Shown: in pieces, positions 31,169 to 55,613 of the stretch
How positions within the stretch are numbered: the first letter of the stretch is position 1
Layout of the letters: each line of letters begins with the position of its first letter
Source of the DNA: Armatimonadota bacterium
GTDB taxonomy: Bacteria; Armatimonadota; UBA10988
NCBI GenBank assembly: GCA_016235455.1
Contig: JACRKZ010000051.1
Location: forward strand, 1-64,000
DNA length: 64,000 bases
Direction: 5' to 3'
Program-made: the position numbers and the translations under genes
Notes under the pieces: generated by a model
Told to the model about the DNA's origin: nothing
The model's database searches: none
The model's input: only the letters and a program-made list of their open reading frames with translations

Positions 31169-33706
31169 TCAGGCTGGTGGCGGCGCGGCCGTGGGCCGCA
31201 TGTAGAGCAGCTCACCCAGCCAACTGGCGCCCACGACGCCCAGGTCGTCGACGCACAGCGGCGCGAAGCTGCCTGGCAGGCGCTGGCAACAGACCGGCCG
31301 GCCGGCGCTGGACTCGTAGCGCAGCAGCCAGCGGTCGGCGCCGTACCAGCGCCCCGGCGGGTCGGTCGAAGCGACGGGATCGAGTCTGGGGCCCTCGGGT
31401 ACGGGCACGCTGTAATGCGGCGACCGGGGCGCGGGCACCGGTGGGCCGCCGAAGGGCTCCCGTCGCAGCATGGCGCCAGTGCGCCGGTCAAGGGCCAGGC
31501 GCTCGCCGGGCAGCGAGACCACCACCGACCCACCAGCCAGTGCCACCGCGACGGCTTGACCAGGCATCGTCCACGCGTCCTCGTCGCGGGCGCCTGGCAG
31601 TAGCACCTGCCAGCGCACCCGGCCATCGGTGCGGGCCAGGGCGACCAGCGCGCAGCCGCCGGCGGGTGCCATGCCGAGGACGAAGAGGCCCGTGGCGTCC
31701 ATGGCGACGTCACGGTGCGGCCCACCGTAGCCAGCCGGTCGCTTGACCAGCGGCGCCGTCCGCCACACCTGCTCGTAGCGCGGGTGCCGCACGACCTCCA
31801 GCCGCTCACGTGCCGCGGCGAGGACAGCACGGGCCTCGGCCTGCTGCGGGCCGCGCGCGGCGGCCACGGGTGCGAGCAGCGACTCGGCCTCGCCAAACCA
31901 CTCGTGCTCGAACAGAGCGCGGCCGTACCTCGCGCACACCAAGTTGGCCGCGCGCGTGCCGGGGTATTTGCGCGCGAGGCGGGCGCACTCGGCCACGGTG
32001 CGAGCGTTGGCGCTCACGTAGCCAGTGAACCGCTCCATGACCTTCCACAGCGGCCAGGTGGCCAACGGCAGCCCTTCGTTGATCAACTCGCAGGCCTCGT
32101 CGTTGCTGATGTCGGTATGCTGCTGGCAGACGCACAGGCCCGACTGCTCGCCAAACAGCAGTCGGTGCGGCCGGCCGGGCTTGGAGGCTAGCAGCGTCGG
32201 CGTGCCGGGGCCGAGCAACGGGCGCATAAGGCCGAGGAGTGCCGCGGCGCGGCTGCCGGCCGCCGACAGCAGGGGCTCCCAGTCGGCCGGCGCATGGCTG
32301 TCCTCGGCGCGGCGCAGGGCCAGGACCGTCTGGTGCGTGGTCCAGCCTGGCAGCAACTCGAGGCAGCGACGCGCGACGTCGAGCCGTGCGTGCCGGTTGC
32401 CTATCTGCCGATCCGCCCGCGCCCGCCACGACTCCGCGCTGTCGTAGGGCGCAGGCCTGGTCGCGGCCTGGATGTCGAAGCGGTCCGCGGAGTCGTAGTC
32501 GCCGGCCCGGTCGGCCAGATCAGCCGCGGCGCGCAGACCGTAACCGCTGGCCGCGTAGGTCTGCGCCAGCCGCCGCAGCGCCGCCTCCGCCTCCTGGCCC
32601 GAGCTCAGGTGCGCCAGCCGGTCGAGAGCTGCGGGAGCTGCCTCGCAATGGCCATACCGCGCGACGAACTGCTCGCACGCCGCTTGGGCAGGCTCGCCAT
32701 GGCCGTTCGTGGCCAGCCACAGCCGCGCCGCCTCCGGTTCGCGCTCCGCCAACCAATGCACCGGCTCGCCCGCGGCATCGGGATAGCGGCGGCAGAAATC
32801 CAGGTAGCCAGCGGTGTCGCCACTTGCCAACAGCTCGGTGGCCACCTCCCCGGCGGCACGCTCATAGGCCTCCTTGGCCGTCTCCGCACCGATGTCGGAG
32901 CGCTGTTGCCGCAGCCAGGCCACCGCTCGCGGATGCGACTCCAGCGCGGGATCCCAGGCGAGGAACGGCGCGATCCACTTGCCGCGGCTGGTGCCTGTGA
33001 GCACCGACGGCTCAGTCGAGGCCTGATGGAACACGCTGGCTGCCGCGATCTGGCCGATCAGGCTGCGCGGGTAGTCCTCGGCGATGGCGCGTAGTGCCGC
33101 CAGGTCATCGCTGGGCCCGGTCCGGCCTTCGGGGTGGCAACCGACCCAGTCGTCCTTCGGGATGGCTGCCAGCAGGCGTGCCGCGGGCAGGCTGTCGCTG
33201 CGCGGGCATTGGGCGGCCAGCCGTCGGTCCGTGTCGGCCGCGCGCGGCGCGGCCAGCAGCGCACGCGCGCGGCGGTTCTGCCGCTCGATCTCCTCGGCGT
33301 CGCTCAGGCCAGGACGTGGCTCGGTGGCGGCCAGCCACGCGGTATGGGTGAGCCCATCGGGTTGGTCGGGCTCGGCCGCGCGTTCGAGCGACCACCGACG
33401 CCATCGGGCCGCTTGGCCTTCGCGACAACCGTCCATCTCGTCGCACGCCGCGTAGGCCGCCAGCGCGCCTTGGATGTCGCCCGCGCGTTCCAGCGCGCAG
33501 CCGATGAGCGCCTGCGCCTTGACCTCCACCAGCGTGCCGGCGCACTCGCGCTGCAGCACGCGCAGCCGCGCCACGGCGCTCTGGGCATGGCCGGTGGCGA
33601 TTTCGACGACGGCGGTGGTCAGCACCTGCGACTGACGCGGCGTCAGCGCCGGCTCGGCGCAGGCCATCGTGGCGGCCCACAGCAGACAGAACCAGGCGTG
33701 TTTCAT
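31169..33706 (-). CDS. Secreted TPR-like helical protein with C-terminal PQQ/BamB-like propeller, no DUF3160, 845 aa
   Basis: Signal peptide MKHAWFCLLWAATMACA; ATGA overlap with the upstream gene; shares ACxxMxGC, LAATEPRPGL and CPRSxxLP motifs with the two fusion proteins; VALARTDGRVRW and LALDRRTG. Confidence 0.8.
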   Translation of the reverse strand: MKHAWFCLLWAATMACAEPALTPRQSQVLTTAVVEIATGHAQSAVARLRVLQRECAGTLVEVKAQALIGCALERAGDIQGALAAYAACDEMDGCREGQAARWRRWSLERAAEPDQPDGLTHTAWLAATEPRPGLSDAEEIERQNRRARALLAAPRAADTDRRLAAQCPRSDSLPAARLLAAIPKDDWVGCHPEGRTGPSDDLAALRAIAEDYPRSLIGQIAAASVFHQASTEPSVLTGTSRGKWIAPFLAWDPALESHPRAVAWLRQQRSDIGAETAKEAYERAAGEVATELLASGDTAGYLDFCRRYPDAAGEPVHWLAEREPEAARLWLATNGHGEPAQAACEQFVARYGHCEAAPAALDRLAHLSSGQEAEAALRRLAQTYAASGYGLRAAADLADRAGDYDSADRFDIQAATRPAPYDSAESWRARADRQIGNRHARLDVARRCLELLPGWTTHQTVLALRRAEDSHAPADWEPLLSAAGSRAAALLGLMRPLLGPGTPTLLASKPGRPHRLLFGEQSGLCVCQQHTDISNDEACELINEGLPLATWPLWKVMERFTGYVSANARTVAECARLARKYPGTRAANLVCARYGRALFEHEWFGEAESLLAPVAAARGPQQAEARAVLAAARERLEVVRHPRYEQVWRTAPLVKRPAGYGGPHRDVAMDATGLFVLGMAPAGGCALVALARTDGRVRWQVLLPGARDEDAWTMPGQAVAVALAGGSVVVSLPGERLALDRRTGAMLRREPFGGPPVPAPRSPHYSVPVPEGPRLDPVASTDPPGRWYGADRWLLRYESSAGRPVCCQRLPGSFAPLCVDDLGVVGASWLGELLYMRPTAAPPPA

Positions 33707-35517
33707 CGCGCTGCCTCCAGCGGTCGCGCGGCATGGATCCACGGCCCATACTGCCGGTCGCCCGCGCGGTACAACACGCGGGGTTCGTCGGGCGCCGAGG
33801 CCTCGGCGACGATCACCTCGTCGCCCCTAATCGTCGTCAGCCAGCGTCCATCGGGCGAGGCCAGCGCCGGCTGCCAGTCGTCGTGGTCGGAACCGAGCGC
33901 TATCATCGGGCTTTCCGCTGGCGCGGTCGGCGCAAGCGGCGGAGCCCTGACCACACCCGGGATCGGCAGGCGGCCGGGCACCGGACGGTCGGACATGCCG
34001 ACCAGCAGCGTGAGGCTCAGGCCGTCGGCGCTGACCGACAGGCCGTGGGGCGAGGAGAGCGGGCCACTCAGCGCGTCGACGCGCCCGTCGGGCCAGAGAT
34101 GGACCACGCGCGCCTCGCCTTGCAGCCGCAGCGACGGCTGGTCGGTGACCACCAGCAGCCAGCCGTCACGGCAGGGCCGGCCGTCCCACACCGCGCCGAA
34201 GCCGGGCCCGGGCAGGGAGCGCACGTGGCCATCGAGCTCCAGCACCGCGGCCTGCGGCCAGCGGTCGGCGCCCAGCAGCAGCAGGCCGCGGCTGTCCGGC
34301 TGCCAGGAGACAGCCCACGGCCGGTCCACCGGCGGCTCGAAGCTGCTCACCACACGCCCGCCACGGTCGATCACGCGCTGATCGAGCAGGAGCCCCGACC
34401 CATCGGGTAGCCAGGTCACATGGCGCCCCACGCGGCCCAGCAGGCGTGCTCGGCCGCCGGTCCGTGGCACCAGCGCCAGTTCGCCGCCCAGCAGGCCGGC
34501 CAGCGTTTGGCCATCGGGCGACCAGGCCAAACGGCCGGGACCCGACCGCCAGCCGGGCGCGGCCACGCGCGTCTGGCCGCTGGCGGTGTCCATCAGCGTC
34601 AGGCCGGCGGCTGTCCAGCAGGCCAACGTGGCGCCATCGGGCGACTCCGTGACGTAGGGGCTCGTCACCGTGACCGAGGCCTGGTCGCGCCCCGAGTCGA
34701 GCTGGAGTCGGTGCAAGGTGTTGACTGCCTCGCCATGCACGACGTACCACAGCGCGGCGCCATCCGCGGACCACACCGGCCCGGCCAGATCGGCGCCGCC
34801 CGTCTGCCGCGCCACCTCGCGTTGCCCCTGGCCGTCGCGCCGAACGAGCACGATGACCGGCTGATGCTTGTCTGCGCTGACCACGCAGGCCACCCAGCGA
34901 CCATCGGGCGAGCCGGCTGGCCCCGGCTGCCATGGGTCTTCGTCGCCTGGCCGCGTGGCTGCTCGCGCCCATCCGGCCAACGTGCGGTTGTCCTGCCAGC
35001 CGAGGCCGAGCGCCGGCGCCCATTGGCGGAGCGTGCGCTCGTTGCCCTGCCAATCGCGCCAGAGCAGCCGGTGTCGCCAGTCGGCCTGCTCCTCGCCAAT
35101 CACCAATTCATGGGCCAGGCCAAACGTGCCGGCGCCATCGTCGGCCGGGTCGACCCGCTCCTCGTCACGCGCGCCATGCGGGAAGCTCCGCGCGGGCCGG
35201 ACGCCCTGGTTCTCTGCCAGCGCCGGCAACAGCTCCGGCCGGTAACGTGTCACGTCGACCTGGGCTGTGGTCTGACCGGCGGCCAGCGTCACGAAGCGTG
35301 GCAGATGACCCGCCGCCGTGACCTCCAGCACGACCCCTGCGCCGTTGGGCGCGTCGACCGCGCAGGGCGTGATGCCGGCGGTGTGCATCGCCGGCGAGTC
35401 GGCGCGGCTCCAGCGCACGCGCGCGCCGGCCGGCCGCGAGGTTACCGAGCAGGGCGTCGCCGCGGCCACGCGCCAGGTCAGACAGCACAGCGCGATGCCC
35501 AGCCAGCGTCGACTCAT
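33703..35517 (-). CDS. Secreted PEGA-like plus TolB/PD40-like beta-propeller protein, 604 aa
   Basis: MSRRWLGIALCCL signal; SVTSRPAGARV...GITPC...VTAAGH (PEGA); repeated SPDG and WSADG blades; ATGA overlap. Confidence 0.85.
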   Translation of the reverse strand: MSRRWLGIALCCLTWRVAAATPCSVTSRPAGARVRWSRADSPAMHTAGITPCAVDAPNGAGVVLEVTAAGHLPRFVTLAAGQTTAQVDVTRYRPELLPALAENQGVRPARSFPHGARDEERVDPADDGAGTFGLAHELVIGEEQADWRHRLLWRDWQGNERTLRQWAPALGLGWQDNRTLAGWARAATRPGDEDPWQPGPAGSPDGRWVACVVSADKHQPVIVLVRRDGQGQREVARQTGGADLAGPVWSADGAALWYVVHGEAVNTLHRLQLDSGRDQASVTVTSPYVTESPDGATLACWTAAGLTLMDTASGQTRVAAPGWRSGPGRLAWSPDGQTLAGLLGGELALVPRTGGRARLLGRVGRHVTWLPDGSGLLLDQRVIDRGGRVVSSFEPPVDRPWAVSWQPDSRGLLLLGADRWPQAAVLELDGHVRSLPGPGFGAVWDGRPCRDGWLLVVTDQPSLRLQGEARVVHLWPDGRVDALSGPLSSPHGLSVSADGLSLTLLVGMSDRPVPGRLPIPGVVRAPPLAPTAPAESPMIALGSDHDDWQPALASPDGRWLTTIRGDEVIVAEASAPDEPRVLYRAGDRQYGPWIHAARPLEAAR

Positions 35518-38500
35518 GGCCTCGGCTCCTTGTCGCCGGCCGCCCGGAAGCAGACCAGCGCGCCGTCGTCGCTCCAGGCCAGCACGCCTTGCTCGTCGGC
35601 AATCTCGCCGTCGTACTCGGGCGGCAGCCGCAACAGCGGCACTCGGCGGCCGGTGCCGGGCTCGATGTGGTCCACATCGCGCCGGCTGATCACCCACGCG
35701 TTGCCGGCCGGTGCGTTGGGGCGTTCGGCTTCGTCGAGGTAGCCGTTCTCGTGCCTTGGACGCGACAGCGTGCCCGTGGCCATGTCGATGGCCTGCCAGA
35801 TGGTGTTGCCCTCGCTGTCGGAGTAGCGGATGATCCGTTGGCCCTTGGGGTGGTACGACAGCTCGGGGCCATGGCGCGCCGATTCGACCAGCCACAGCGG
35901 CGTGCGCCAGAGCCGCCGGCCGGTGCTCAGGGCGTAGGCCGACAATGTGCCCTTCTCCTGGTCGTGGTCGTAGTCCATGACCAGCACCCGGTCGCCGACG
36001 AAGCTGCGTTCCATCGGATGGCTGGTGGTGATCTCCCAGCCCGGCCGGCCGGATGCGCGGGCCAGCATTCGGTACTCGTCGAGCCCGATCAGGAACAGGT
36101 CGCCCCGGATCACGATGTCGGGGTTGGCTTCCTTGGACAGCTTCAGCGGCTCGCTATGCAAGGCGCGGCCCGAGACGCGGTCGAGCAGTGCCAGTTCCTG
36201 TCGGGAGACGAGGCACACGACATCGCCAGCGATCTCCAGGCGCGGCTGCTGAGCAGGCCGATGCCAGCGCGTGCGGCCCGTGGCGCGGTCGAGGGCGACG
36301 ACGGACTCCACGCCCGCCAGATCGACGTACGACGCGATGACCAGGTCGCCACTGGCCTGGAGCGCGGGCTTGTCCTGGCCGAACACGCTGTCCAGCTCGA
36401 CGCGCCAGGCCTCGCGCAGCCTCGGCTCGCGGCGCACCGCGAGCCGCTCTCGGGCTTCGGCGAGCAGCGCCTGAGCGCGCGGCTGGAAGGGGCCGGCCTC
36501 GTCGACCAAGGGCGTCACGGCGGCAATGGCCTGCTCCAGCCAGCCGACGAGGAGCGGCCCGCGGGCCCGCTCGATCCGCAGCAGCGCGTAGCTGGGCCGA
36601 CCGGCCGGCGTAGCCAGCAGAGCGTCCAGCCAGGGCGCGTCGTTGTGATCGAGGTCCTGGGCAAGCTCGGCGACGGCCTCCTCGTAGCCCGGGCCAGGCC
36701 CAGCGTCGATGCGCTTGGCGAGCACTTCCAGATCGCTGGGCTCGCGATGCGACCGGGCTGCCTTCTGGCCGACCCATGGGGGTAGCGCGGCCAACAGCTT
36801 CTCGGCCTGAGGCCCGGCCGCGGCCAGCAGGGCGTCGAGCCCGTTGGGATCGTCCGCCTGCTCAACGCAGCGGACCAGTTCCAGGCAGATCCGCCGCGAG
36901 TCCCAGCCCGGCAGGAACGGCTGGGCGTCATGCACCGCCACGCGGAGCGGCTCGACGCCCTGCATCCAGGTGTCCTCGGCCAACGGCGACCGCGGCGCGG
37001 CGGACGCCCAGGGGCCTTCTGGCCGCGCCGCCGCCCGTCGCCACAGGCCGATGCCGCGGTCGAGGTCGCCGCCGATGCAGGCCAGCAGCGCCGCCGCGCG
37101 CAGGCCGTCGCGCGTGTCGGGGTAGTCGCGGGCCAACTGCGTGAGCAGCGCCCGGTCGAGGCCCCAGCCGACCAGGCTGCACCGCATCAGCCCCATCGCG
37201 TTCATCTTGCCGCCGATCAGGCGGGCCAAGGCCAACGGTGCCAGCGCCGACCGCGGATGCTCGGACAGCAGCCGGCGCAGCGCCGGCTCGGGGTCGGCCT
37301 GTTCCTCGCGGGCGGCGCTCCACAACGCCATCACCTCGGGCTCGTGGTCCACCACCCAGCGCTGGAGCGGGTCCTGCTGGGCCTTCGGCCCGAATCGCGC
37401 GCGCAGCCTTCGGTACAAAGCGGCATCGCCCCGAGCGAAGGCGGCGCGCAGCAGGCACGATGCGGACAGGTCGATCCAGCGTTGGGCGGGAGCCATGCCA
37501 GGGGTGATCTGGTAGCGTTCGGCCAGCCAGGCCGCCGCCTGGGGCTGCGGCTCGGCCTGGCGCGCGACGCCCAGGTACGGCAGCACGCGATCCAGCGCGG
37601 CCTGTGGATCCAGGTTGGCCAGGGTGTCGGCCGCAACTACCGCGGCCAGCTCGGCCAGCAGGCTGCCGGCGTTGTCGCGTTGGCTCTGGGTCAGGTCAGC
37701 CAGCGGCCGGGTCCAGTGGTCGTCGTCCCGGTAACCCGGCTCGTTCGCCCACGGCGGGACCCAGCGGGCTGCCGCCGCGGCCAGACGCATCGCCGGCAGC
37801 AGGCGGCTGCGCGGGCATTCGGCCTCAAGCCGTGGAAGATCCACGTAGCCGCCCTCCAGGACCACCATCAGCCGGGCCCGCGTGTCCTGGCGGTCGAGTT
37901 CCTGCTCGGGCGTGAGGCCCGGCTTGGGGTCGGTGGCCGCCAGCTTTGCTTTGAGCTGCCGCTCCTGGCGGTCCTGCTCCGCTCGCCAGCGGCCCATGGC
38001 GCCGCCGCACTGCCTGGCCCGGTCCAACGCCTCGTCGGCCGCCTGGCAGCCATACATCGTGTCGCAGGCCATATACGCGTCGCGCGCCGCGCGCAGGTCG
38101 CCCAGGCGCTCACAGGCCCGGCCGATGAGGATCTGCGCCTCTACCTCGACTTCGGTGCCGGCCACGCTCGGCTGGAAGGCGCGCAGACGGTCGATGGCGG
38201 CCTGTGCGCGGCCGGCGACCAGATCGAGCTCGGCCGTCGCCAGCACCGTCCGTGCGGTTGGCCCGGCGCTGTCGGCGAGGAGCACAAAGGTGCTGGTCCA
38301 GGCTGGCGGCCTCGGGCGCGAGTGCGCCGCGTTCAGGCGGGCGTGCCACTCGTCAGCGGTGACGTCGCGTCGGCCGGGCTCGACGAACTCGTGGTAGCTG
38401 CCGACCGCGCCGACCGCCGCGAACGGCGGCAGGCCAGGCAGCTCGAACTGCTCGACGATGGGTCGGAACAGGCCGCTGCCCACGTAGATGCGGCCATCGA

Positions 38501-40163: not shown

Positions 40164-41663
40164 CTACGGCGCCACGACCACGCCGCCCAGTTCACCGAAC
40201 TCGTCATGGCTCCGCCGCACCAACGGCAGGCAGACCGGTCGGCCGCTGGCCGGGTCGCGCAGGCCGATGGACAGCACGGCCGCGCCGTTGGCGCTGATCG
40301 TCGGGAAGGTGACCTCGGTGCGGGTCGTGGCCTCGTCGTCCTGCAGCCACCGGCTGGTGGGCAACGGGCCTGCGTCCGTCTGGGCCAGCGTGCGGCCGCC
40401 CTGGGCGGCCGTCAGGCGCAGGCGCAGCGTGGCGTCGCGCAGGGCGCGGCCGACGCCACGGTTGACCCAGCGTACGATCAGCGGGAACGGCCGGCCGGCC
40501 TGGATAGTGCGCGGCAGCGTCACGCTCAGCGGCACCAGCCGATAGCCCATGCGGCGCAGGCCGAGGGCGATCAGGTCGGGCCGCTCGGCCATGAAGTCCT
40601 GCGCGTCGCGTCCGCCATAGCCCAGCAGGCCGATGTAGTTGGGATGCAGGCTCAGCGCGTCCTCCACGGTCCACTTGACCCACGCCGGCCCGCCCGCGCG
40701 CGCCGCGGTGTAGCCGCCGAGGAACTCGCTCATCTGCGGCGCCCGGCGCAGGTCGCGGTAGACGTGCTCGCAGAGGCGGCGCTCATTGGAGTGCACCGCG
40801 CCGCCGGCGCCGTCGCGGCGCAGGGTGATGTTGGGCCGCGCCAGGGCCAGGTCGAAGGCGCTGTAGCGCAGGTAGGCGTCGTACTCGCCGGTGAAGGCGG
40901 GGTCGAGCTTGTCCGTGGGCCCGGCCCACAGCGAGGCGGGGCCGTCGGGATCGTAGGAGTAGCTGAGCGCCAACCAGCGCTCAGGGAAGGCGGCGCTCCA
41001 GATGCCCAGCACCGCGTCGAGCGCGGCGCGTTTGTCGTCCAGCGTGGCGTAGGGATAGCCGGTGTGCCATTCGCCCCAGCGGCCGAACCCGCGCAGGTCG
41101 ACGAGCGCCGGTGTGCGTGCTCCCTGAAAATGCGCGTTGGCCGCCGCCAGGAACTGGCGCAGGCGTGCCTGATAGAGCGGGTTCCGCGCGTCGACGTGCC
41201 AGCCGAACGACGCGCCATCCTCGCGCCGACGCTTCTGGTCGTCGGGGATGCGCGCCAGCAGCCAGTCGGGAATGCCCAGCCCGCCCGGCGGGTCGAGCCG
41301 GGACCAGCCGAACAGCGGCTCGCTGCTGATGCGCAGGTGCAGCCGCTTGCCACGCGCCAGCCAAAAGTCGCAGGCGGCATCGACACGGGTCCAGTCGAAC
41401 CGGCCCTCGGCGGTCTCCACGTCCGACCAGGCGAACATGATGGCTACGTCGTCGCAGCCCTCGAACCGCGCCTCGGGCAGCACCGACATCGTCGCCGTGC
41501 CGTTGGCGCGTGGGTCCAACGGGTAGTTCTCGTAGAGCACCCACCCCATGTCCGGGTTGTGCAGGACGACCTCGGTGTCCTCCCGCGGCGTGAGGGTCTG
41601 GGTGTCCTGGGCGCCGCACGCCGCGGCCAGCAAGGTGGTCATCGCCAGTAGTCGCCAGCGCAT
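40164..41663 (-). CDS. Secreted DUF4832-type glycoside-hydrolase-like protein, 499 aa
   Basis: SD gaggag; signal or lipobox LAAAC; LHNPDMGW, WSDVETAEGRFDW, GFGRWGEWH, MGYRL. Confidence 0.75.
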   Translation of the reverse strand: MRWRLLAMTTLLAAACGAQDTQTLTPREDTEVVLHNPDMGWVLYENYPLDPRANGTATMSVLPEARFEGCDDVAIMFAWSDVETAEGRFDWTRVDAACDFWLARGKRLHLRISSEPLFGWSRLDPPGGLGIPDWLLARIPDDQKRRREDGASFGWHVDARNPLYQARLRQFLAAANAHFQGARTPALVDLRGFGRWGEWHTGYPYATLDDKRAALDAVLGIWSAAFPERWLALSYSYDPDGPASLWAGPTDKLDPAFTGEYDAYLRYSAFDLALARPNITLRRDGAGGAVHSNERRLCEHVYRDLRRAPQMSEFLGGYTAARAGGPAWVKWTVEDALSLHPNYIGLLGYGGRDAQDFMAERPDLIALGLRRMGYRLVPLSVTLPRTIQAGRPFPLIVRWVNRGVGRALRDATLRLRLTAAQGGRTLAQTDAGPLPTSRWLQDDEATTRTEVTFPTISANGAAVLSIGLRDPASGRPVCLPLVRRSHDEFGELGGVVVAP

Positions 41664-41804
41664 GGTTGCCGCTCCTCTTGGTAGGACAGTCAGGCAGCGG
41701 CGGCGGCTCCGTGCCGCCGGTCGGGCCGGATGCATTCGAGGCGCCCATCTGGCGCCCGGGTACCCGCGGCGGGGTCCAAGACCACACCGGCACGGAGGTG
41801 TCCG

Positions 41805-46469: not shown

Positions 46470-48372
46470 GGCGCCACCTCCAGCGGCCGTGCCACATGCA
46501 GCCAGGGCCCGTAGGCCTGCGCCCCGGCACTGAACAGCGTCCGCGCGCGATCCGGCTCATCGGCGGGCGCCACCTTGAGGTCGTTGCCCCAGAGCGCCGC
46601 GAGCCACCGGCCGTCGGGTGAGGACTCGGCTTCCCACCAGTGGGTGGAGTGCCTGCCGGAGAAGTAGAGCCAGACCGGCCGGGGCGCCGGCGCCGGGGTC
46701 TGCGCACGGTCGGTCAGGTTGACCTGCAGGCGCTCGCCGCCCGCACGTGTGACGACCAGCGTCTGGCCGCCGTCGGCGACGCGTGTATCGGTCAGGTCCT
46801 CGGGCAGGCCGACCCAGGCCGCGGCGGGCGAGCCGTCGGCGGGCCGCACCCAGAGCTGCGTGTGGCCGGGCGGGCCAGCCAGCCAGGCCGCCACGCGACC
46901 GCCGCGCGAGCAGCTCAGTCGGCGCGCTGACGGCTGCGGCGGCGAGAGCAGCACGGCCCGGCCGTCGGAGAGGATGCGCAGCACGCGCGTGGACGCCTGG
47001 AAGCGCCGGCCGGGCTCCTCGGCGGCCACGGCCAGCCATTCGGCACCGGCCGGCACCGCCTCCCACAGCGCGGCCCAGTCGGGGCAGGGCAGGAGCATGA
47101 GCTGGCCACCCAGGTCCAGGTCGGCAGCGCGGCGCTGGCCGTGGTGGTCCAGACCCACGACAAACAGCGCCCGCCCATCGGCTCGCCATGCGGCACGGAG
47201 GAGGCTGGCCAGCGGCACCCGCAGGTCGGCGAGCAACTGGCCGCGTGGGTCCAGCACCGTGGCGTCGACCAGCAGGCCGCTGCTGTCGGGTAGCCAGGCG
47301 AAGCAGGACGGTGTGGTGACCAGGTCGCGCGGCGGCCCGCCGCGCAGATCGACCAGCGACAGGGTGGGCTGTTTTGGGTCGATCTCGTTGCCACCCTCGG
47401 TCTCGCGCAGGCAGGCCAGTAGCGGCCGTCGGGCGAGACCTGCAAGGCGCGCCGCCGATGCGAGGTCTTCCAGCCGCGTGCGAGCTGCCGCGTCGTGCGC
47501 GTGGCCGGGTCGTAGAGCATGACGCCTTGCTCGGAGAAGCAGGCCACGGCGCCGTCCGGGGTCAAGGTGACCATGCCGTTGCCCAGCGCGATGTAGCGGT
47601 CGTCGGCGCCGGTGACCAGGTCGCGGCGATGCAGCACACGGCGGACCGCCTCGTGACCGCGGTAGGCGGTGGCCATGTACCACATGGCCCGGCCATCTGC
47701 CGACCAGCAGGCATAGTCGACCACGACGTTGGGGTAGCGGACGACCTCGCGGCCGCCTCCGCCGTCGCGGCGGCGGATGGCGATGAAGCCGCCCTGGTCA
47801 TCGGTCCCGCTGTAGGCCAGCCAGCGGCCGTCGGGCGAGGTGGCCAACTCGGACCAGATGTCGGGCAGATGGGGCACGCGCGGCTCGGCCTCGTTGTCGT
47901 CCGCCTCCCGATCGGCTCCGGCCCAGCGCGCCAGCACCCGCGTCTGGCCGTCCGCGCCGCGCCAGGTGACTGTGTGCTGCTCACGGTCGTGCTGCGCGCC
48001 GTACACGCCGGCACCGTCCGCGGCCGGCTCGCCGTTGTCGCGGTCGCCGTCGGCCTTGGGCTCGGTCCGGCTCAGCGGCCCGACCAGGCTGGGTCGCCAC
48101 GGCGTCAGGCTGATCGCCAGGCCCTCTTGCCCGTCGGCCACCGGCACGAACCGTGGTAGATAGCCCGGCGCGGTCACCTCGAGCACGATGTCGGCGCCGG
48201 CCGGCAGGTCCAGGCTGCATGGCGTCGGCGCGGCGGTGTTCATGTAGGGCGAATCGACGCGGCTCCAGCGTACTCGCGCGCCGACGGGCTGCGAGGTCAC
48301 GCTCAGCGCCCCGGCGCTGGCCAGGCGACAAGCGAGGCAACACAGCGCGACACCCAGCCAGCGGCGTTCCAT
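46466..48372 (-). pseudogene. PEGA plus TolB-like propeller paralogue with a 1-bp frameshift near 47420 (pseudogene or sequencing error)
   Basis: The N-half (MERRWLGVALCCL...LQVSPDGR) is in ORF 46915-48372 and the C-half (LACLRE...YGPWLHVARPLEVAP) is in ORF 46466-47683. The junction reads cgc-ta-ctg. Confidence 0.8.
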
Positions 48373-48449: not shown

Positions 48450-51400
48450 CTACCACCGATAGTACCGGTACGGGTCGTCGCCCAGCGCCTGCCCCTCCAC
48501 GTAGTCGGGATGGTAGAAGCCGGTGGGGTCCAGCACCGCGGGTCGTGTGCCGGGGTCTGGCACGACGGTGAAGGACGGCGCCGCCATCCACAGGGTCACC
48601 GCCTGGCCGGCCAGTTCCTGCAGCGTGAAGCGCGTCTTGGCGTCGGCCTGCCCGGCGCGGAAGGTCAGCTTGACGTGCTTCCACTGCGGGCCGAGCGTGG
48701 TGCGCTCGAACAGCCCGGCGCTGCCCCACGGGTCGTGGTCTTTCTCGATGGCGCAGGTGACACCCGCCGGCGCGCTGGCCCGCAGCCAGGCCGACCAGAC
48801 GTAGGCCACGCCGGCCTGCAGCCCGAAGCCGGGATGACCCAGTTGGACGTGCCAGCCTGTGTCGCTGGTCTTGGTGATGTCGATGCGCAGCGACTTCTGG
48901 CCGAGCAACTCAGGCGGCACGTCGTCGCTGACCGCCATGGTGGCGGCCGCGGTGCCCTGGACGCCCAAGGACCAGCCCTGGGTGCCTTCGGCGAAGGTCG
49001 TGTTGGTCAGGATCTCTCCCTCGGGCAAGACCGCGGGAGTGACCGGGCCCAGCATCATGTCCTCGGCCCGGCAACTCCAGCCGCCGCCGCCGAACTCGTC
49101 GAAGACGCGGATGGCGATGCTGTTGACGCCGGCCTTGACCAGCCTCGCGGGGATGGTGTAGGTGCGAGGCACGTTCCAGCCACTGGCCGCACCGACCTTG
49201 ACGCCGTTGAACCAGGTCACGTCGCGGTCGTCCACGGGGCCGAGCTTGAGCAGCAACTCGCGGCCCAGCCACGCCTCGGGTACGGTCACTTCGCGGCGCA
49301 CCCAGAACGAGCCGTCGGCCTCGCCCACGCCCGGCGCGGTCTCCCACATGGCCGGCAGCGTGAACGTCGACCAGCCGGTCAGGTCGAGCTTCTCGGCTGA
49401 CCAGCCCGTGGTGGCGGCGTCCTGCCCGGGATCCTCGGTGCGCCGGTCGACGCTGCTGGCCGCCGGCAGCTTGCGCTCCACCCGGAAGCGCCAGGCACCC
49501 GCCAGGCCAATGGGCCGTGCGGTGGCGTTCCAGCCGGGCGACAGGCTGCGCGCGTCCATGGCGAACTCCGCGCCCAGGTTGGCCAGGAGCTGGGTCAGCG
49601 CGCGCGTCAGGCGCCAGCGGCTGTAGCGCAGATAGGTCTTCTCGCCGGCCGGCAGCATGTCGGGCGTGAGCTGCAGCGCGAGCACGCGCCCGTCGTGCGC
49701 CCGGCCCAGCAGACCGCCGGCTGTCGGCGCGACACCGCCTCCGGCCAGCAGGGGTCGCAGCGGCTGGTCGGCGCGCAGCCGGAGGTCGGAGCGCGACAAA
49801 CCGCGCAACTCGGGCCAGTCGGGCAGCTCGCCGGCGTCGTGGTAGGCTGCCGTCTGGCCCATGGTGCCCAACAACGCGTTCGCGCGCGGCAGCAGCAGCA
49901 CCCGTCCGCCTGCCGCCGCGAAGGCGGACAGGTCGGTCTCGGCCACCTTGGCGTCCGCGGCCACTACAGCAAGTGTCGAACGGTCCGCGGCGGGCAGGTT
50001 GTCGGCCGCCTCGAACCGCAGACCCAGGCCGCGCAGAAGCTGGCGCCCGGGTGCCCCGCCGAGATAGACACAGCGCTTGACGCGCGGCTCGGGCTGGGCG
50101 CTGCGCGCATACTCGACGAGCCGCCGGGCCAGCCGCCGAGCCATGGGTTCGGCGCTGGTGCGCGCCTCGAGGTCGAGCGTGCAGAGCAGGGCCAGGCCCT
50201 CACCGTGCTGCAGTTCGAGCAACGGCGAGTAGGCCATGTCGAACTCGCCGTGGAGCAATGGACGCCACCCGGCCAGGTGCGGCTTCTCCACCGCGGCACT
50301 GGCGACGCTGCCGTAGTTGCCCCAGTGCCAGCCGAGCGCCGGGTCGGCGTTGGGCGACTCGTCCAATCCGCCCCAGGTGGTCGGCACGAGCGTGCCCGAC
50401 CCGTTCCAGTCGCGCAGATCCTCGGCGTCCAGTCCGTCGACGATGGGATGTCGGCTCTGCGTGGGCACGGGCCAGAAGCGGCGCGACACGTGGCCCGCGG
50501 TGCGCAGTCCCAGTTGGTCGCGCAGGCAGGCCGGGGTCTGGCCCATGAGGACCAGCCGGCCACCCGCGGCAACATGCTCCGCGGGCGAGCCCGGCAGCGC
50601 TGCCTCCAGGGCGCGCCGGCCAATGACCAGCACCTGGCCCGGTGCTGGCCGGCCAGTCCAGGCTCGCGTCTGGTAGCCGGCCTCGGCCAGCAGGCGAGTG
50701 GTCTCTCCACGAGGGTCATGGATCCAGATCGTGCCGCCCGGCCGCGGCGCGAACGGCGGGTAGACGCGGAAGGCCATGCGGTCGGTGTGCTTGGCCTCAC
50801 CGATGGTGACGTCCAGCTCGATCTGGCCGTCGGTCACCGACGTGACGGCGGGCAGCTTGCCGCTCACGGGCTTGCGCAAGGTCGCGGCGGGGTCGATGCG
50901 GCCCGTCTCCTTCTGCTCGGCCTGGACCTTGCCCCCGACCGTGAGGCGCCAGTGCAGGCTGTAGGGCACGGCCTGGCGCAGGTCGTTGATCAGGATGGCC
51001 TGCTTGGCCACGGTCGCGCCGGATTCGTAGTGGTGGTCCTTGGCGGTGAAGCGCTCCGCCGAGCCGGCGATGTACGCCAGCGTGGTGTTGTTGTTGGCGA
51101 TCAGCGCCTGGCCGGCCGGGGCGGCCGACCAGTTGCCCGCCGGCTGCAGGTAGTGCACATCGGCGAGGTTGGCGTTGGCCATCCACACGCCGCGCCCGTC
51201 GGGCCGCGGGGTGATCGGCGTCTGCGCCCAACGCTTGTCGTCCGGCAGGCTCCAGCCGTGGCCCATGTTCCACGGCACCATGCCCGCGGTCAGGCCCCAG
51301 GTGCGCCAACTGCGCCATGTGTTGCGGATGAACAGTTCCTCGACAGCCTGGAAGGCCGGCGCCTGCTCCAGGGCCGTGGCGCCGTGCCAGTTGCGCCAGC

Positions 51401-53159
51401 GGTCGGGGCCTTCGTAGTCGCTCACCAGGCGGGCGCGGTAGGCGGCCGGCTCGGTGTCATAGGCCCGCTCGCCCAGGTAGATGGCGCAGAACTCGGTCAT
51501 CAACGGCTCGGAGACCACCGCCTCGCCGAAGCCGTTACGGCCGCGCATGAAAGTCGTGTGCAGCGGTGTGCCGAACTCGATGGGCAGGAACGGCATCTGC
51601 GCCTTGGTCACGTACTCGCTGAGCCACTCCTCGCGTTCCTGCAGCGGTATCAGGTCGAGGTAGTTGTTGCAGGTATGCACATCGCCCACATCGGCGCCGT
51701 GGTGCGTGAAGACCGGGCGCGTCGGGTCCTCGCGCTTGATGGCGGCCACGACCTCGTCGCCGGCCTTGGCCAGGTCGCCACGCTGATACCAGCCGCGCCG
51801 ACCGATGACCACCGGGTTCTGATCCTGCTGACGGCCGAACAGGTTGCCCGACGTAGCCCACATGACGATGGACGGATGGTTGCGCAGCCGCCCCAGTTGT
51901 TGCGTCAGGAGCGCGTTGTAGCGCTCCTTCTGGCCCGGTCGCGACCAGGCGAATCCGCTGTCGTAGATGAGCGGACCCGCCGCGGGAGCAGCGCCCGCCA
52001 GCAGGAGTCCCTTGCGGTCGGCTGCCTCGGCCCACAGGTAGCGCAGGTAGACCGTGCCGCGCGCGTTCTCGTCGCCGGGCCAGGCTTCGGCCAGGTTGAA
52101 CCCGGCGGCGCGATAGCCGTCGAGCGTGTTGTCGATGGCCTGGGGCACCCAGGCACAGTAGTTCCATTCGTCGCGCGCGGTCACCGGGCGGAGGCGAATC
52201 TCGCGCTCGTTGAGCAGGAAGCGCAACCGGTCGATTCTGAACTCGCGGAAGCCGATCGTCTCGGTCACCTCATCGCGCCAGCCGGGCGCCTCGACGGCGA
52301 GCATCAGGCGGTAGAGATTGGGTTGGTCGATGTCCCACAACCGCGGGTCGGGCCAGGGCCAGGCCAGATCGACGCGTGTCTGGCCAGCGTTGAGCGGGGC
52401 GCTGGCGGTGAACGTCTTCTCGGCTCGGCCGTCCGGCCCCAGCAGTCGCGCGGTGAACCGGGCGGCGCCGGCTTGGCTCACGCCCGCCAGACCGAGCCGG
52501 ACTGACAGGCGATGCTCGCGCACGGAGGTGGCGATCGTCAGTCCATCGGCGTGGGCGCCCGCTGGCCTGCTGTGCAACAACGCCTCGCCGACGATGCCGC
52601 GCGCGTCGACATTGCCGGGCAGGCGCCAACTGGGCTGGTCACCGGCCAGGGCCGCGGCTACATTCTGGGCCTGGGGTGCCGCGACGACCAGGATCCGCAG
52701 CAGGTTGTCCTGGCCGAACCGCACCGCGGGCGTGATGTCGACCGTACCGCTGGGCCAGTTGATCAGGCCGCAATCGGTGCCGTTGCAGTAGACGCGGGCA
52801 TCGGTGCTGACGCGGGTCAACTCGAGGACGATCGCGCGGCCCTGCCAGGAGGCCGGCACGTTCACCTGGCGTTCGTACCAGGCGCGGCTGGCTTGCGCCA
52901 CGGGGACCGCGTCCCAGGGCGCCGCTTGGCTGGTCTTGGCCAAGCCAGGCAGGCACTGAGTGCCCGACCACGAGCCCGGCACCAGCGCCTCGCCCCAGTC
53001 GCCGCTCGGAGCGCCGGCCGCCGGGCCCACGGCCGGCTGGAAGCGCCAGGCGCCGTTCAGACACACAGTGCCGCGTGAGCTCGATGTCTCGACGGGCTGA
53101 AGTTGGGCCAACGCGGGGCACAGGGCGAGGACGAGCGCAAACAGGGGCACGCGGGTCAT
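48450..53159 (-). CDS. Large secreted GH2-like (beta-galactosidase/glucuronidase fold) protein with C-terminal CBMs, about 1569 aa
   Basis: SD ggagg; LNGAWRF, PRLWDIDQPNLY, IGFREF, NHPSIVMW, IEFG; LGPVDDRDVTWFNG sugar-binding domain; CBM4/9-like WHVQL. Confidence 0.8.
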   Translation of the reverse strand: MTRVPLFALVLALCPALAQLQPVETSSSRGTVCLNGAWRFQPAVGPAAGAPSGDWGEALVPGSWSGTQCLPGLAKTSQAAPWDAVPVAQASRAWYERQVNVPASWQGRAIVLELTRVSTDARVYCNGTDCGLINWPSGTVDITPAVRFGQDNLLRILVVAAPQAQNVAAALAGDQPSWRLPGNVDARGIVGEALLHSRPAGAHADGLTIATSVREHRLSVRLGLAGVSQAGAARFTARLLGPDGRAEKTFTASAPLNAGQTRVDLAWPWPDPRLWDIDQPNLYRLMLAVEAPGWRDEVTETIGFREFRIDRLRFLLNEREIRLRPVTARDEWNYCAWVPQAIDNTLDGYRAAGFNLAEAWPGDENARGTVYLRYLWAEAADRKGLLLAGAAPAAGPLIYDSGFAWSRPGQKERYNALLTQQLGRLRNHPSIVMWATSGNLFGRQQDQNPVVIGRRGWYQRGDLAKAGDEVVAAIKREDPTRPVFTHHGADVGDVHTCNNYLDLIPLQEREEWLSEYVTKAQMPFLPIEFGTPLHTTFMRGRNGFGEAVVSEPLMTEFCAIYLGERAYDTEPAAYRARLVSDYEGPDRWRNWHGATALEQAPAFQAVEELFIRNTWRSWRTWGLTAGMVPWNMGHGWSLPDDKRWAQTPITPRPDGRGVWMANANLADVHYLQPAGNWSAAPAGQALIANNNTTLAYIAGSAERFTAKDHHYESGATVAKQAILINDLRQAVPYSLHWRLTVGGKVQAEQKETGRIDPAATLRKPVSGKLPAVTSVTDGQIELDVTIGEAKHTDRMAFRVYPPFAPRPGGTIWIHDPRGETTRLLAEAGYQTRAWTGRPAPGQVLVIGRRALEAALPGSPAEHVAAGGRLVLMGQTPACLRDQLGLRTAGHVSRRFWPVPTQSRHPIVDGLDAEDLRDWNGSGTLVPTTWGGLDESPNADPALGWHWGNYGSVASAAVEKPHLAGWRPLLHGEFDMAYSPLLELQHGEGLALLCTLDLEARTSAEPMARRLARRLVEYARSAQPEPRVKRCVYLGGAPGRQLLRGLGLRFEAADNLPAADRSTLAVVAADAKVAETDLSAFAAAGGRVLLLPRANALLGTMGQTAAYHDAGELPDWPELRGLSRSDLRLRADQPLRPLLAGGGVAPTAGGLLGRAHDGRVLALQLTPDMLPAGEKTYLRYSRWRLTRALTQLLANLGAEFAMDARSLSPGWNATARPIGLAGAWRFRVERKLPAASSVDRRTEDPGQDAATTGWSAEKLDLTGWSTFTLPAMWETAPGVGEADGSFWVRREVTVPEAWLGRELLLKLGPVDDRDVTWFNGVKVGAASGWNVPRTYTIPARLVKAGVNSIAIRVFDEFGGGGWSCRAEDMMLGPVTPAVLPEGEILTNTTFAEGTQGWSLGVQGTAAATMAVSDDVPPELLGQKSLRIDITKTSDTGWHVQLGHPGFGLQAGVAYVWSAWLRASAPAGVTCAIEKDHDPWGSAGLFERTTLGPQWKHVKLTFRAGQADAKTRFTLQELAGQAVTLWMAAPSFTVVPDPGTRPAVLDPTGFYHPDYVEGQALGDDPYRYYRW

Positions 53160-53194
53160 GCTGGACCTCCGGCGTGCTATTTCCGCCGCGTGTC

Positions 53195-54883
53195 TCATTT
53201 TCCTCCGGCCGCGACCGGTGCGCCCAGCAGGGCCAGGTAGCGTGGTGTCGGCGCGGCGCCCGCGGCCAGTCGCGCGGCCCAGCCATCGTCCGACAGCGGC
53301 TGGCCGACCGGCTCGACGAACTCGTAGTAGCTGCCGACATAGCCGACCGCCGCCGCCGGCGGATACTCGGGCAGGTCGAACTGCTCGACGATGGGGTACA
53401 GCCAGCCGCTGGCCACGTGGAACACGCCGCCCTGATCCTTGCCGAGCCTCGCCGTGACCATCGGCCGCTCCAAGGGCACATTGAAGAGGGCGCCGAAGCG
53501 CTCCCACTCGTCGGCGTGCTCGGGCGCCAAGCCGGCGAGTTCCCGCCGCGCATCATCCGCGGCGTGGTCGGCCTTCCGCACCAGATCGGCCAGCCAGACC
53601 CGGCTCTCCTCGGTCAGCGCGTCCAGGCGCTTGAGCTCGGCGACGTAGCCGCCGACCATCTGCGCGAAGCGGTTCCAGAACGCGGGCAGCGGCTCGACGA
53701 ACCCGTGCGGAATCTCGCGCCGGCCTGGGGCACTGGGCGGGAAGTCCAGTTCGCGGCTGTAGAGCTGGCTGTTGTGCCGCATCTGAGCCCAACTGGTCAG
53801 CGCGCAGTTGAGGGTCTTGGCGCGCCAGGCCGGCGAGCGCATGAAGCGCGGGGCAGCCGGGTACTGCTCGCCCAGCGCCGCCAGCGTGGCCAGCCACCGC
53901 TCCGGCAGGCACGCGTCGCGCGGCGCGAAGGTCGCGGCACCGTCGGTCAAGCCGAGCATCTGTGCCACATGTTCGCCGCTCGGTCGGTCCAGCTCCGAGG
54001 TCACCGCCTGTAGCCGCACCGTATCGGACGACACGTGCTCGGGCAGAATGGCCAGGGCACGGGTGCTGGTGGGGCGGTCGGTGGGGTAGCGGGCGCTCAC
54101 TCGCGCGCAGTCAGCGTCCGACAGGTGGGCCGGATCCAGGCCGTCCTGCCGCAGCGCGGCGTCGAGTTCGTCCAGGCCGATCTCGACGGTCTGGCCAAAC
54201 AGCCGGCCGCGCGCCTGACGCAGCGCCAGGTACCCGCGGCGAGCTGCTTCGTCGCGCAGCAGGCCGGCCCACCAGGCCGCCCGGCGCACGGTGGCAGCGG
54301 TGGCGCCGCGTCCGGCCAGTGGCAGGCGGTAGCGGCCCAGCCACCGCGTCAGACGCGCGTAGTCGTGCAGGTCGGGCGTGTCGTAGGCGGCGGGCAGCGG
54401 CTCGGTAACCAGGGCCGCGTCGGCGGCAGCCACGACGGCATCGCCGGCGCGCACGAGTTCGGGTGGCAGTGGGACGTCGAGCCGGGCCAGGCGCACGGCC
54501 CCGGCCAGCGAGGCCAGCTCCTCGGGCGGCGCCTGGGCGGCTTGCTTGGCGTGCGCCGCCCACAGTGCCTGCACCAAGCCGGTGGTCAGCGGCGCCAGGA
54601 CCTTGCGCTCGGCCTGGGCCAGGCTGGCGCGCTGCACGCTCCACCACAGGCAGAGCATGGCGTCGCTTGTCACCAGCACCGGCACCTCGTTGCCCCGACG
54701 AGGGTAAGCGCTCATCAGGTCGCCGCGCTGGCCGGCGGGCAGGATGGCGAATCCGTCTCGCTCCAGGGCCGCGGCCAGCCCCGTCGCCGCCGCGCCGAAG
54801 CGTTGGGTCACCTGGTCCAGGTTGGCCGGCGGCGCGCCCAGGCCCAGCGCCAGGCTGAGCAACACGGCATGGATGGCAGGCAC
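53195..54883 (-). CDS. Secreted stand-alone DUF3160 domain protein, 562 aa
   Basis: Signal peptide; VTSDAML, KTLNCALTSWAQMRHNSQLY, GFVEPLPAFW, GYVGSYYEF. Confidence 0.82.
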   Translation of the reverse strand: MPAIHAVLLSLALGLGAPPANLDQVTQRFGAAATGLAAALERDGFAILPAGQRGDLMSAYPRRGNEVPVLVTSDAMLCLWWSVQRASLAQAERKVLAPLTTGLVQALWAAHAKQAAQAPPEELASLAGAVRLARLDVPLPPELVRAGDAVVAAADAALVTEPLPAAYDTPDLHDYARLTRWLGRYRLPLAGRGATAATVRRAAWWAGLLRDEAARRGYLALRQARGRLFGQTVEIGLDELDAALRQDGLDPAHLSDADCARVSARYPTDRPTSTRALAILPEHVSSDTVRLQAVTSELDRPSGEHVAQMLGLTDGAATFAPRDACLPERWLATLAALGEQYPAAPRFMRSPAWRAKTLNCALTSWAQMRHNSQLYSRELDFPPSAPGRREIPHGFVEPLPAFWNRFAQMVGGYVAELKRLDALTEESRVWLADLVRKADHAADDARRELAGLAPEHADEWERFGALFNVPLERPMVTARLGKDQGGVFHVASGWLYPIVEQFDLPEYPPAAAVGYVGSYYEFVEPVGQPLSDDGWAARLAAGAAPTPRYLALLGAPVAAGGK

Positions 54884-54905: not shown

Positions 54906-55613
54906 CTACGCGCTCTCGCGCGGACCCGCCACCAGCTTGTACCCGACGCCGGGAATGGTCAGGATATGCTGCGGACTGCTCGGCTCGGTTTCCACCTTGA
55001 GGCGCAGGCGCCGGATATGCACATCCAGCGTGCGGCTGTCGAGGTAGAGGCTCTCGCCCCACACCTTCTCGAGCAGTTGGTCGCGCTCCATGACGCGGCC
55101 GGCGTTGGCGGCCAGCACGACCAGCAGGTCGAACTCCTTGGGCGTGAGCCGGATGGAGCGGCCGCTGACGACCACGTCGCGCGCGGCCTCGTCGATGGTC
55201 AGCGGACCGACCTTGATCGGGCCCTCCGCCACGTCGCCGTGCTCATAGAGGTTGGTGCGGCGCAAATGCGCGCGGATGCGGGCCAGCAGTTCGCGCGGCA
55301 TGAACGGCTTGGTGACGTAGTCGTCGGCGCCCATCTCGAGGCCGAGTACCTTGTCCAGTTCATCGGCCTTGGCCGTGAGCATGATGATCGGCGTGTAGAT
55401 GCGCGCGCGCAGTTGCTGGCACACCTGCAGGCCGCTGAGGCCGGGCAGCATGACGTCCAGCAGGATGATGTCGGGGTGCTCGGTGGTGGCGAGTTGCACC
55501 CCTTCGGCGCCGTCGGCCGTGGCCACGACACTGTAGCCCTCGGCCGACAACAGCGCGATCAGGCTCCGCTGAATCGCGGGATCGTCCTCAACCACCAAAA
55601 CCTTCTCGGCCAT
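54906..55613 (-). CDS. OmpR/PhoB-family DNA-binding response regulator
   Basis: VLVVEDD, LLDVMLP, MLTAK, GADDYVTKPF, LTPKEFDLL, RTLDVHIRRLR, GVGYK. Confidence 0.96.
   Translation of the reverse strand: MAEKVLVVEDDPAIQRSLIALLSAEGYSVVATADGAEGVQLATTEHPDIILLDVMLPGLSGLQVCQQLRARIYTPIIMLTAKADELDKVLGLEMGADDYVTKPFMPRELLARIRAHLRRTNLYEHGDVAEGPIKVGPLTIDEAARDVVVSGRSIRLTPKEFDLLVVLAANAGRVMERDQLLEKVWGESLYLDSRTLDVHIRRLRLKVETEPSSPQHILTIPGVGYKLVAGPRESA

Follow-up and report, generated by a model that had tools for sequence, protein, structure and literature searches.

The stretch of DNA analysed here, 64,000 nucleotides long (hereafter the window), comes from an Armatimonadota bacterium of the lineage UBA10988 (GenBank assembly GCA_016235455.1, contig JACRKZ010000051.1, positions 1 to 64,000) and corresponds to contig C28 of a 6.5-Mb assembly (185 contigs, 93% complete). 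Between 31169 and 55613 its minus strand carries divergent paralogous genes of two recurrent kinds. One encodes a propeller protein with a PEGA-like N-terminal domain (PEGA-A and PEGA-B); the other encodes a giant protein in which a DUF3160 domain, a helical region and a PQQ-type propeller are joined (fusA and fusB), a third member of this kind, C, having no DUF3160 domain. Our analysis revealed that the two genes constitute a genuine, undescribed, conserved two-protein module of Armatimonadota.

The G+C content is about 70-75% across the region. On the minus strand an uninterrupted run of co-oriented genes extends from outside the window down to 31169, where its 3' end faces a convergent gene ending at 31113 (27838-31113, plus strand) for a protein of 1091 amino acids (aa) with no Pfam or NCBIfam match. 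A preliminary description, made from the letters of the window, had placed the array at 31169..55613; the genes are present in the order and with the domains given there, as borne out by Pfam, but the same-strand run goes on upstream of that interval, to contig position ~66885, where a divergent SSF (sodium:solute) symporter gene faces the start of the first gene. The unit therefore comprises about 13 genes and 35.7 kb. Intergenic gaps along the run are tiny or overlapping, and a scan by consensus only found no terminator-like sites on the minus strand in 30900-50800. In transcription order, the genes are as follows (GH, glycoside hydrolase family; CBM, carbohydrate-binding module; scores from Pfam).

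62959..63999, minus strand: 3' portion of the gene that opens the run (start outside the window, ~66885), GH123_N-like protein with CBM9, 1308 aa (GH123_N, E 2.3e-9; CBM9_1, E 5.5e-6)
59356..62949, minus strand: exported DUF5703_N and F5/8 type C protein (DUF5703_N, 161.4 bits; signal-like N-terminus from ATG 62949)
56611..59343, minus strand: exported F5/8 type C and GH95-like protein (F5_F8_type_C_2, 47.1 bits; Glyco_hydro_95_cat, 24.3 bits, under the cut-off of 27; signal-like N-terminus)
55625..56581, minus strand: Gfo/Idh/MocA-type oxidoreductase (GFO_IDH_MocA, 58.6 bits)
54906..55619, minus strand: OmpR-type response regulator (Response_reg, 106.6 bits; Trans_reg_C, 98.5 bits)
53195..54883, minus strand: lone DUF3160 protein, 562 aa (PF11369, 150.7 bits, cut-off 25)
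48450..53198, minus strand: exported GH2-like protein with CBM4_9 (Glyco_hydro_2_N, 57.8 bits; CBM_4_9, 40.8 bits; Glyco_hydro_2_C, 21.4 bits, cut-off 21)
46466..48372, minus strand: PEGA-A, PEGA-like/TolB-like propeller protein, in two frames in the window (47421-48372 and 46466-47419)
41805..46469, minus strand: fusA, DUF3160, helical (TPR-like) region and BamB-like PQQ_2 propeller, 1554 aa (DUF3160, 97.1 bits; PQQ_2, 36.5 bits, cut-off 27.6)
40164..41735, minus strand: DUF4832 protein (31.9 bits, cut-off 29.2), with a likely lipoprotein-type N-terminus MRWRLLAMTTLLAAAC if the start is ATG 41663
35514..40106, minus strand: fusB, DUF3160, helical region and BamB-like PQQ_2 propeller, 1530 aa (DUF3160, 128.4 bits; PQQ_2, 46.6 bits)
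33703..35517, minus strand: PEGA-B, PEGA-like/TolB-like propeller protein, 604 aa (PD40, E 0.0014; PEGA, 11.3 bits)
31169..33706, minus strand: C, last gene of the run, helical region and shortened PQQ-like propeller without DUF3160, 845 aa (PQQ_2, 16.3 bits, below the cut-off of 27.6)

Three junctions are ATGA overlaps, all present where the preliminary description had placed them: the ATG of fusA lies in the stop of PEGA-A (46466-46469), that of PEGA-B in the stop of fusB (35514-35517), and that of C in the stop of PEGA-B (33703-33706). A possible fourth ATGA (53195-53198) joins the stop of the lone DUF3160 gene to ATG 53198 of the GH2-like gene and is closely preceded by GGAGGA; an alternative start of the latter gene, ATG 53159, is found 39 bases further on. 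All proteins of 31169..55613 except the regulator have a hydrophobic, signal-like N-terminal segment, in agreement with the signal peptides initially assigned to them, which were judged here by a hydropathy script only.

Several searches with the proteins of the run returned little. NCBIfam beta-galactosidase models match the GH2-like protein far under their cut-offs, no relative of the DUF4832 protein was found in a PDB sequence search, and no NCBIfam match was obtained for DUF3160, C, DUF4832 or two flanking uncharacterised proteins. No SusC or SusD match was seen among the genes scanned in the locus, no search aimed at SusC/SusD having been made. A defence-system reading was dropped, as no PADLOC family was found for six proteins.

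Conservation and inheritance of the gene pair

Comparison of a helical-propeller profile with 1.84 billion representative proteins gave 1443 matches at E<=0.001, 44 at 1e-10 and seven at 1e-30; three of these seven are the window's own, and most weaker matches cover the propeller only. Eighteen matches were taken for checking because their helical part matched. Half of them (9 of 18) are full-length proteins of 1572-1782 aa with both DUF3160 and PQQ_2, so that the fusion, for which the preliminary description knew of no precedent, is uncharacterised but not unique. Five others (P0010, P0013, P0016, P0022 and P0031) have a whole or partial DUF3160 domain with PQQ_2 not above cut-off, and the remaining four are helical-PQQ proteins without DUF3160. 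Ten of the 18 relatives were traced; each is from a metagenome or a metagenome-assembled genome (MAG), belongs to a cluster of 1-3 members and has 'hypothetical protein' as its sole name. A full-text search found no literature on the DUF3160-helical-propeller architecture, and neither NCBIfam nor PADLOC has a model for the module proteins; the system is thus undescribed, as had been proposed.

Other scans were less productive. A pattern scan of species-representative genomes yielded three confirmed loci out of 77 pattern matches (in an Armatimonadota MAG, an Armatimonadia MAG, and a Cytophagia MAG with a weak DUF3160 match), and the 80 loci of a metagenome scan were one fused relative and 79 ordinary DUF3160 genes. 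Word-index protein searches were uninformative, fusB retrieving two proteins (the query and its paralogue; 8000 scored candidates) and the DUF3160 alignment one.

The distribution of the pair was established in 401 genomes, a sample of the phylum limited to Armatimonadota, with genes taken from six-frame open reading frames (ORFs) that passed a codon-position G+C filter. The PEGA family is strongly matched in six of them, namely the window's own genome (G000), G002, G032, G356, G391 and G258; in the 211 other genomes at E<=1e-8 the matches are of a generic PD40 kind and do not exceed 63 bits. The helical-region profile matches over most of its length in ten genomes: the same six, G249, G386, G321 and G064. 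In all six (three times in G391), as well as on metagenome contig L053, a PEGA gene stands directly upstream of a helical-PQQ gene with or without DUF3160. Tandem arrays resembling that of the window are present in G391, where one contig has the order PEGA, fusion, PEGA, fusion and another the order helical-PQQ, PEGA, fusion; in the window's genome, searches with the PEGA and helical profiles placed all module copies within the window. The junction between the PEGA gene and its partner is ATGA in eight of ten cases, TGATG in G258, and TTGA (or an ATG 11 bases on) in G002, and at these ten junctions a GGAGG-like motif lies 7-12 bases upstream of the partner start, inside the end of the PEGA gene. 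The coupling first noticed in the window is therefore kept in the adjacent pairs of G002, G032, G356, G391, G258 and L053, and the pair is a module restricted to Armatimonadota, as far as searched.

The history of the pair was reconstructed by a quick IQ-TREE search, with support from the SH-like approximate likelihood-ratio test (SH-aLRT) only. In a tree of 53 DUF3160 domains, the 21 fusion-type domains group together (support 100), and the PEGA-paired members form an 18-row subclade (support 97). Within the fusion clade the three window domains constitute one clade of their own (SH-aLRT 99), and their terminal branches are long (0.72-1.42; median, 0.43); as the lone DUF3160 protein is nested among fusion domains, it descends from a fused ancestor. 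The PEGA tree (8 rows) and the helical-region tree (9 rows) agree in grouping, both of them recovering the window paralogues as a monophyletic group (SH-aLRT 99 and 96, respectively) sister to G002, with G258, G391, G032 and G356 on the other side. Since the partner trees are congruent, the module was inherited as a unit and amplified within the window's lineage; by these trees, the two PEGA genes, the three helical-propeller genes and the three DUF3160 domains of the window are lineage-internal duplicates.

The surroundings of the pair vary. In G032 it follows alpha-2-macroglobulin and VanW/G5 genes (L010 2367-8190); AdhE, acyl-CoA synthetase, MraY/WecA-family and MurG-like genes, some of them on the other strand, are its neighbours in G002; and in G386 a serpin gene lies downstream of the fusion gene (L171 3395-4642). 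Protease-inhibitor genes (alpha-2-macroglobulin, serpin) adjoin the module in these two other genomes, G032 and G386. As neighbours differ between genomes, the glycosidase context is specific to the window's genome among those examined.

Elsewhere in the window, a 974-aa protein of STAND type (TIR, NB-ARC and TPR; 857-3781, minus strand), a possible immune-type NTPase, is encoded next to a PriA helicase gene. Two other segments (12327-17492, plus strand, and 20898-24322, minus strand) contain ATPase and platform genes of type II secretion/type IV pilus kind, an M23 peptidase gene and genes for flagellar FlhA and FlhF, from which the host organism appears to be flagellated.

Domain anatomy of the paralogues

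A four-way alignment showed that the lone DUF3160 protein corresponds to the first ~610 residues, or N-terminal third, of fusA and fusB, and C to the remaining ~900. The paralogues are very divergent, as initially noted: the lone DUF3160 protein is 45% identical to residues 1-610 of fusB, fusB shares 35% identity with fusA and 32% with C, and C shares 32% and 34% with the matching parts of fusB and fusA, respectively. PEGA-A and PEGA-B are 42% and 34% identical in their two halves.

For the C-terminal ~300 residues of the fusions, BamB is the best sequence match in PDB (E 2e-29), far ahead of quinoprotein dehydrogenases. This ranking, together with the absence of any PF01011 match at E 0.01 among the window proteins, led us to drop a quinoprotein dehydrogenase reading. 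The propeller part is about 100 residues shorter in C (198) than in the fusions (297 and 309); the PQQ label initially given to all three proteins was upheld by Pfam for fusA and fusB, both above cut-off, but not for C at 16.3 bits.

The helical region was named TPR in the preliminary description. No TPR family matches the window proteins at E 0.01 or better in Pfam, but TPR families do match in relatives of the fusion proteins, and a profile of the region gave weak matches of TPR type to BamD (4e-4 to 8e-4) and CpoB/YbgF (0.018-0.029). Three motifs are common to the relatives in this region, MYGC, ATxPxPGL and ECPRS, all of them present in fusB.

The PEGA label fared similarly. PEGA (PF08308) scores 11.3-15.4 bits, below its gathering threshold of 20.8, but it is the only family matched in four of five N-terminal segments, and in one G391 protein as well. 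After its signal-like N-terminus PEGA-B continues with a beta-sandwich carrying a motif of PPGA type (TS.P.GA.V...G.TPC). An AlphaFold2 model of PEGA-B (6 sequences; mean predicted local distance difference test, pLDDT, 66) places this sandwich, with seven strands and pLDDT 74-89, at residues 23-88, and the propeller follows it. The best Foldseek matches of the model are to TolB (E 3e-12), with low template-modelling (TM) scores (0.24-0.36), and PD40 repeats occur in PEGA-B and its relatives.

PEGA-A, listed as one gene in the preliminary description, is split in the window by a one-base frameshift near 47418 that had gone unnoticed: residues 1-317 match PEGA-B 1-337, a second frame aligns to PEGA-B 347-603, and the frame switches between SPDGRY and LACL. 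Parts of the stretch are present in ten public sequencing runs, three groundwater runs of one study holding 55-95% of the sampled words. Four runs (X1 to X4) were compared; they may include the window's own source sample and are not independent of the window. One extra base behind 47418 is present in the contigs of X1 (depth 21.6 of 21.6) and X2 (9.3 of 9.3); in X3 the contig breaks off at 47419, and X4 has no coverage there. As both runs that bridge the site read through it, an error or a minor variant of the window assembly is the most likely cause of the frameshift. At 46874, contigs of all four runs have T against G in the window, a synonymous difference; together with the indel at 47418, it suggests that the window assembly contains minor variants or slight errors in its consensus. 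Across PEGA-A, 15 synonymous and 12 non-synonymous differences separate the window from the run contigs (union over X2-X4), a ratio that is weakly suggestive of constraint on the gene. A 'skip 1079' joint in high-depth contigs was rejected, its shorter side having only 21 letters, and taken as a short shared word from other DNA. In three other MAGs the DUF3160 fusion genes appear as two overlapping ORFs (L051 8699-13085, L171 4723-9880 and L146 4040-7020), which may be assembly frameshifts like that of the window.

The DUF3160 domain

DUF3160 (PF11369, IPR022601, arCOG03316) is found in 47 of 151 genomes of the phylum and also in archaea and eukaryotes. The three window copies, all above the family cut-off, share invariant Y, TSD, E, SW and VEP positions with PF11369 members. 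Alignment of 28 canonical DUF3160 sequences shows 47 polar columns with a conservation of at least 93%; of these, 15-17 are kept in the window copies, against 23-34 in other fusion-clade members (one outlier, 11). The RGHY, (R)H and ADVxT motifs are missing from the window copies, each copy being altered differently, while the TSD Asp, one Glu and the VEP Glu are kept in all copies of the domain. Given this loss of polar residues, the window domain more likely binds than catalyses; on conservation alone, a non-catalytic, binding head is the more likely one.

The AlphaFold2 model of the lone DUF3160 protein (36 sequences; pLDDT 86.7; predicted TM-score, pTM, 0.87) is mostly helical with a three-stranded C-terminal sheet. 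Foldseek found no PDB match for it at E<=0.001, the highest Z that VIA-align obtained among 48161 chains was 5.7, for a designed helical bundle, so that no fold was assigned, and the ESM Atlas contained no usable match for canonical DUF3160. The modelled fold would thus be one with no solved relative in the searches made, which does not in itself prove its novelty.

Three further, more canonical DUF3160 loci are present in the window's genome. At one of them (L014, G000:C126, 2334-4811), an ORF lies directly 3' of a canonical DUF3160 gene that seems to be split from an N-terminal piece; judged by its N-terminus, this ORF may encode a CapA/PGA_cap-type protein. A further divergent DUF3160 clade, with 13-22 of the 47 polar positions kept, includes L049, L050 and L052 (G004, G005 and G002, respectively) and L015 of the window's genome; here the domain stands at the C-terminus of proteins of 900-1080 aa with unassigned N-terminal portions. 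The recurrent neighbours of canonical DUF3160 in the 80 metagenome loci, counted from crude six-frame ORFs, were an FG-GAP protein (14), a Memo and PGA_cap protein (9), an ABC ATPase (7) and an extracytoplasmic function (ECF) sigma factor (6). The FG-GAP repeat protein is directly upstream in its 14 loci (e.g., L114 3958-4947) and, as the propellers are fused or adjacent here, DUF3160 seems to accompany beta-propeller proteins.

Function of the module and comparison with known systems

The reading we prefer is that of a coupled, exported heteromer with binding-type DUF3160 heads, which in this genome would hold a substrate or organise enzymes within a sugar-degradation operon; as a whole it is put forward tentatively, its chance being a little short of even. 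The first gene encodes an exported protein made of a PEGA-like beta-sandwich and a TolB-like PD40 propeller. The second, starting inside the stop of the first, encodes an exported giant in which ~600 residues of TPR-like helices, preceded in some but not all members by a DUF3160 head, lead to a BamB-like propeller. Translational coupling would supply both proteins in about equal amounts and, after Sec export, the two would form a heteromer, either periplasmic or located at the surface; we infer their binding to each other from the coupling, the co-inheritance and the domain types. The two propellers and the helical solenoid would serve as binding platforms, and the DUF3160 head of the window copies would bind a ligand rather than act as a catalyst. 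Co-transcription with exported glycosidase-like proteins would, in this genome, allow a polymeric substrate to be held or the enzymes to be organised at the envelope. This is probably the role here, but glycan handling, read from this operon only, is the weakest step of the scheme.

Several points weigh against this reading. The glycosidase context was met in no other genome examined, which weakens the glycan capture proposed in the preliminary description. A PEGA partner does not go with all fusions: the more distant ones have none, and no PEGA gene was found in the DNA around the helical matches of G249, G321 and G064 or around the distant fusions of G066, G131 and G198 with a small profile, built from four sequences, that may miss distant partners; in G386 the contig ends 150 bases upstream of the fusion, so that a PEGA neighbour cannot be judged there. 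Export and localisation are predicted from N-termini read by hydropathy, the TPR nature of the ~600-residue helical region is suggested by weak matches (E up to ~0.03), and the PEGA-B model is of moderate confidence (pLDDT 66 with 6 sequences). The 15 and 12 differences counted in PEGA-A come from low-depth contigs and may include errors.

Alternatively, the module could be a scaffold for maintenance or protection of the envelope, acting on cell-wall or outer-membrane components, with the glycosidase operon being incidental. Its parts do mirror periplasmic accessory proteins, TolB being the top fold match, BamB the top sequence match, and BamD and CpoB/YbgF the only TPR matches, and the neighbours in other genomes fit as well: alpha-2-macroglobulin and VanW/G5 genes before the pair in G032, the serpin gene after the fusion in G386, and MraY/WecA-family and MurG-like genes near the pair, on the other strand, in G002. 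However, these matches are at the level of folds and repeats only (the equivalog models give 20-22 bits, where TolB requires 343 and BamB 285), and the neighbours vary by genome, some of them being divergent in orientation. It would also be unusual for a housekeeping factor of the envelope to be amplified in tandem and to diverge fast, and the occurrence of the pair in only six of 401 genomes means that its function is not a core one; we regard such a scaffold as unlikely. Quite improbable, in our estimate, is an active exported enzyme system whose catalytic head, DUF3160, would act on glycans, capsule-like polymers or other such substrates, the helices and propellers serving to bind the substrate or anchor the protein. 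The 47 conserved polar columns of canonical DUF3160 are typical of an enzyme, a single table line of one paper, the sole one found to mention the family, gives arCOG03316/DUF3160 as 'secreted enzyme', the two Glu and one Asp noted above are kept in all copies, and the genes are co-transcribed with glycosidase-like ones. Yet two thirds or so of those columns are altered in the window copies (15-17 of 47 kept), along with the three lost motifs, the module is kept without any DUF3160 in C and in relatives such as L011, P0008, P0012, P0015 and P0038, and there is no solved fold or catalytic site for comparison.

Finally, the array might consist of decaying paralogues, i.e. recent duplicates that drift while their long ORFs persist because stops are rare at 73% G+C. 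The long terminal branches (0.72-1.42 against a median of 0.43), the heavy loss of conserved residues, the shortened propeller of C and the frameshift of PEGA-A in the window assembly would all be expected of decay, but the genes retain the codon signature of their neighbours (G+C 0.85-0.90 at the third position and 0.53-0.59 at the second), the ATGA junctions and ribosome-binding motifs are intact, and signal-like N-termini are kept. Moreover, the PEGA-A frame is restored in the contigs of both bridging runs, synonymous differences exceed non-synonymous ones, and comparable tandem arrays exist in G391, all of which makes decay very unlikely. The heteromer with binding heads also has a bolder version, which we consider improbable: a new extracytoplasmic capture machine, in which TolB-like and BamB-like propellers would present, via a TPR solenoid, a DUF3160 head with no solved fold relative, duplication and fast divergence would generate specificities, and polymers would be fed to the co-transcribed glycosidases in a phylum presumed to lack Sus-type systems.

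The module differs from each of the known systems that it resembles. Canonical DUF3160 proteins are single-domain exported proteins of ~700 aa, whereas the window copies belong to a separate fusion clade and have lost 30-32 of the 47 polar positions. Where canonical DUF3160 has a Memo and PGA_cap neighbour, the partner is likewise exported, but the module described here has a PEGA/PD40 partner and a fused helical-propeller tail. The C-terminal ~300 residues of the fusions are like BamB (YfgL) in their PQQ_2 match and best PDB hit; however, they are the tail of proteins of 1530-1554 aa rather than a stand-alone lipoprotein of ~390 aa, score 19.8-21.3 bits with the equivalog TIGR03300 (cut-off 285.2), and have no link to BamA in the locus. 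The modelled propeller of PEGA-B matches TolB structures best and has PD40 repeats, but it scores 21.8 bits with the equivalog TIGR02800 (cut-off 343), no tol/pal genes adjoin it, and its N-terminal domain is a PEGA-like beta-sandwich instead of the TolA-binding domain. With accessory proteins of polysaccharide utilisation the module shares the tight co-orientation with exported GH2-like, GH95-like, GH123-like and CBM-bearing proteins and a regulator, but it has no sequence or fold relation to known ones, and this glycosidase context is found only here among the genomes examined.

Through this module the widespread DUF3160 family can be assigned a partner, its translational coupling to that partner is seen to be conserved, and nature supplies variants that either have or lack the DUF3160 head; interaction and function thereby become directly testable. 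The module also shows that giant envelope proteins have been amplified into a family peculiar to a phylum that has received little study, proteins which, if the link to sugar degradation is true, would handle substrates in a way different from the known Sus-type systems.

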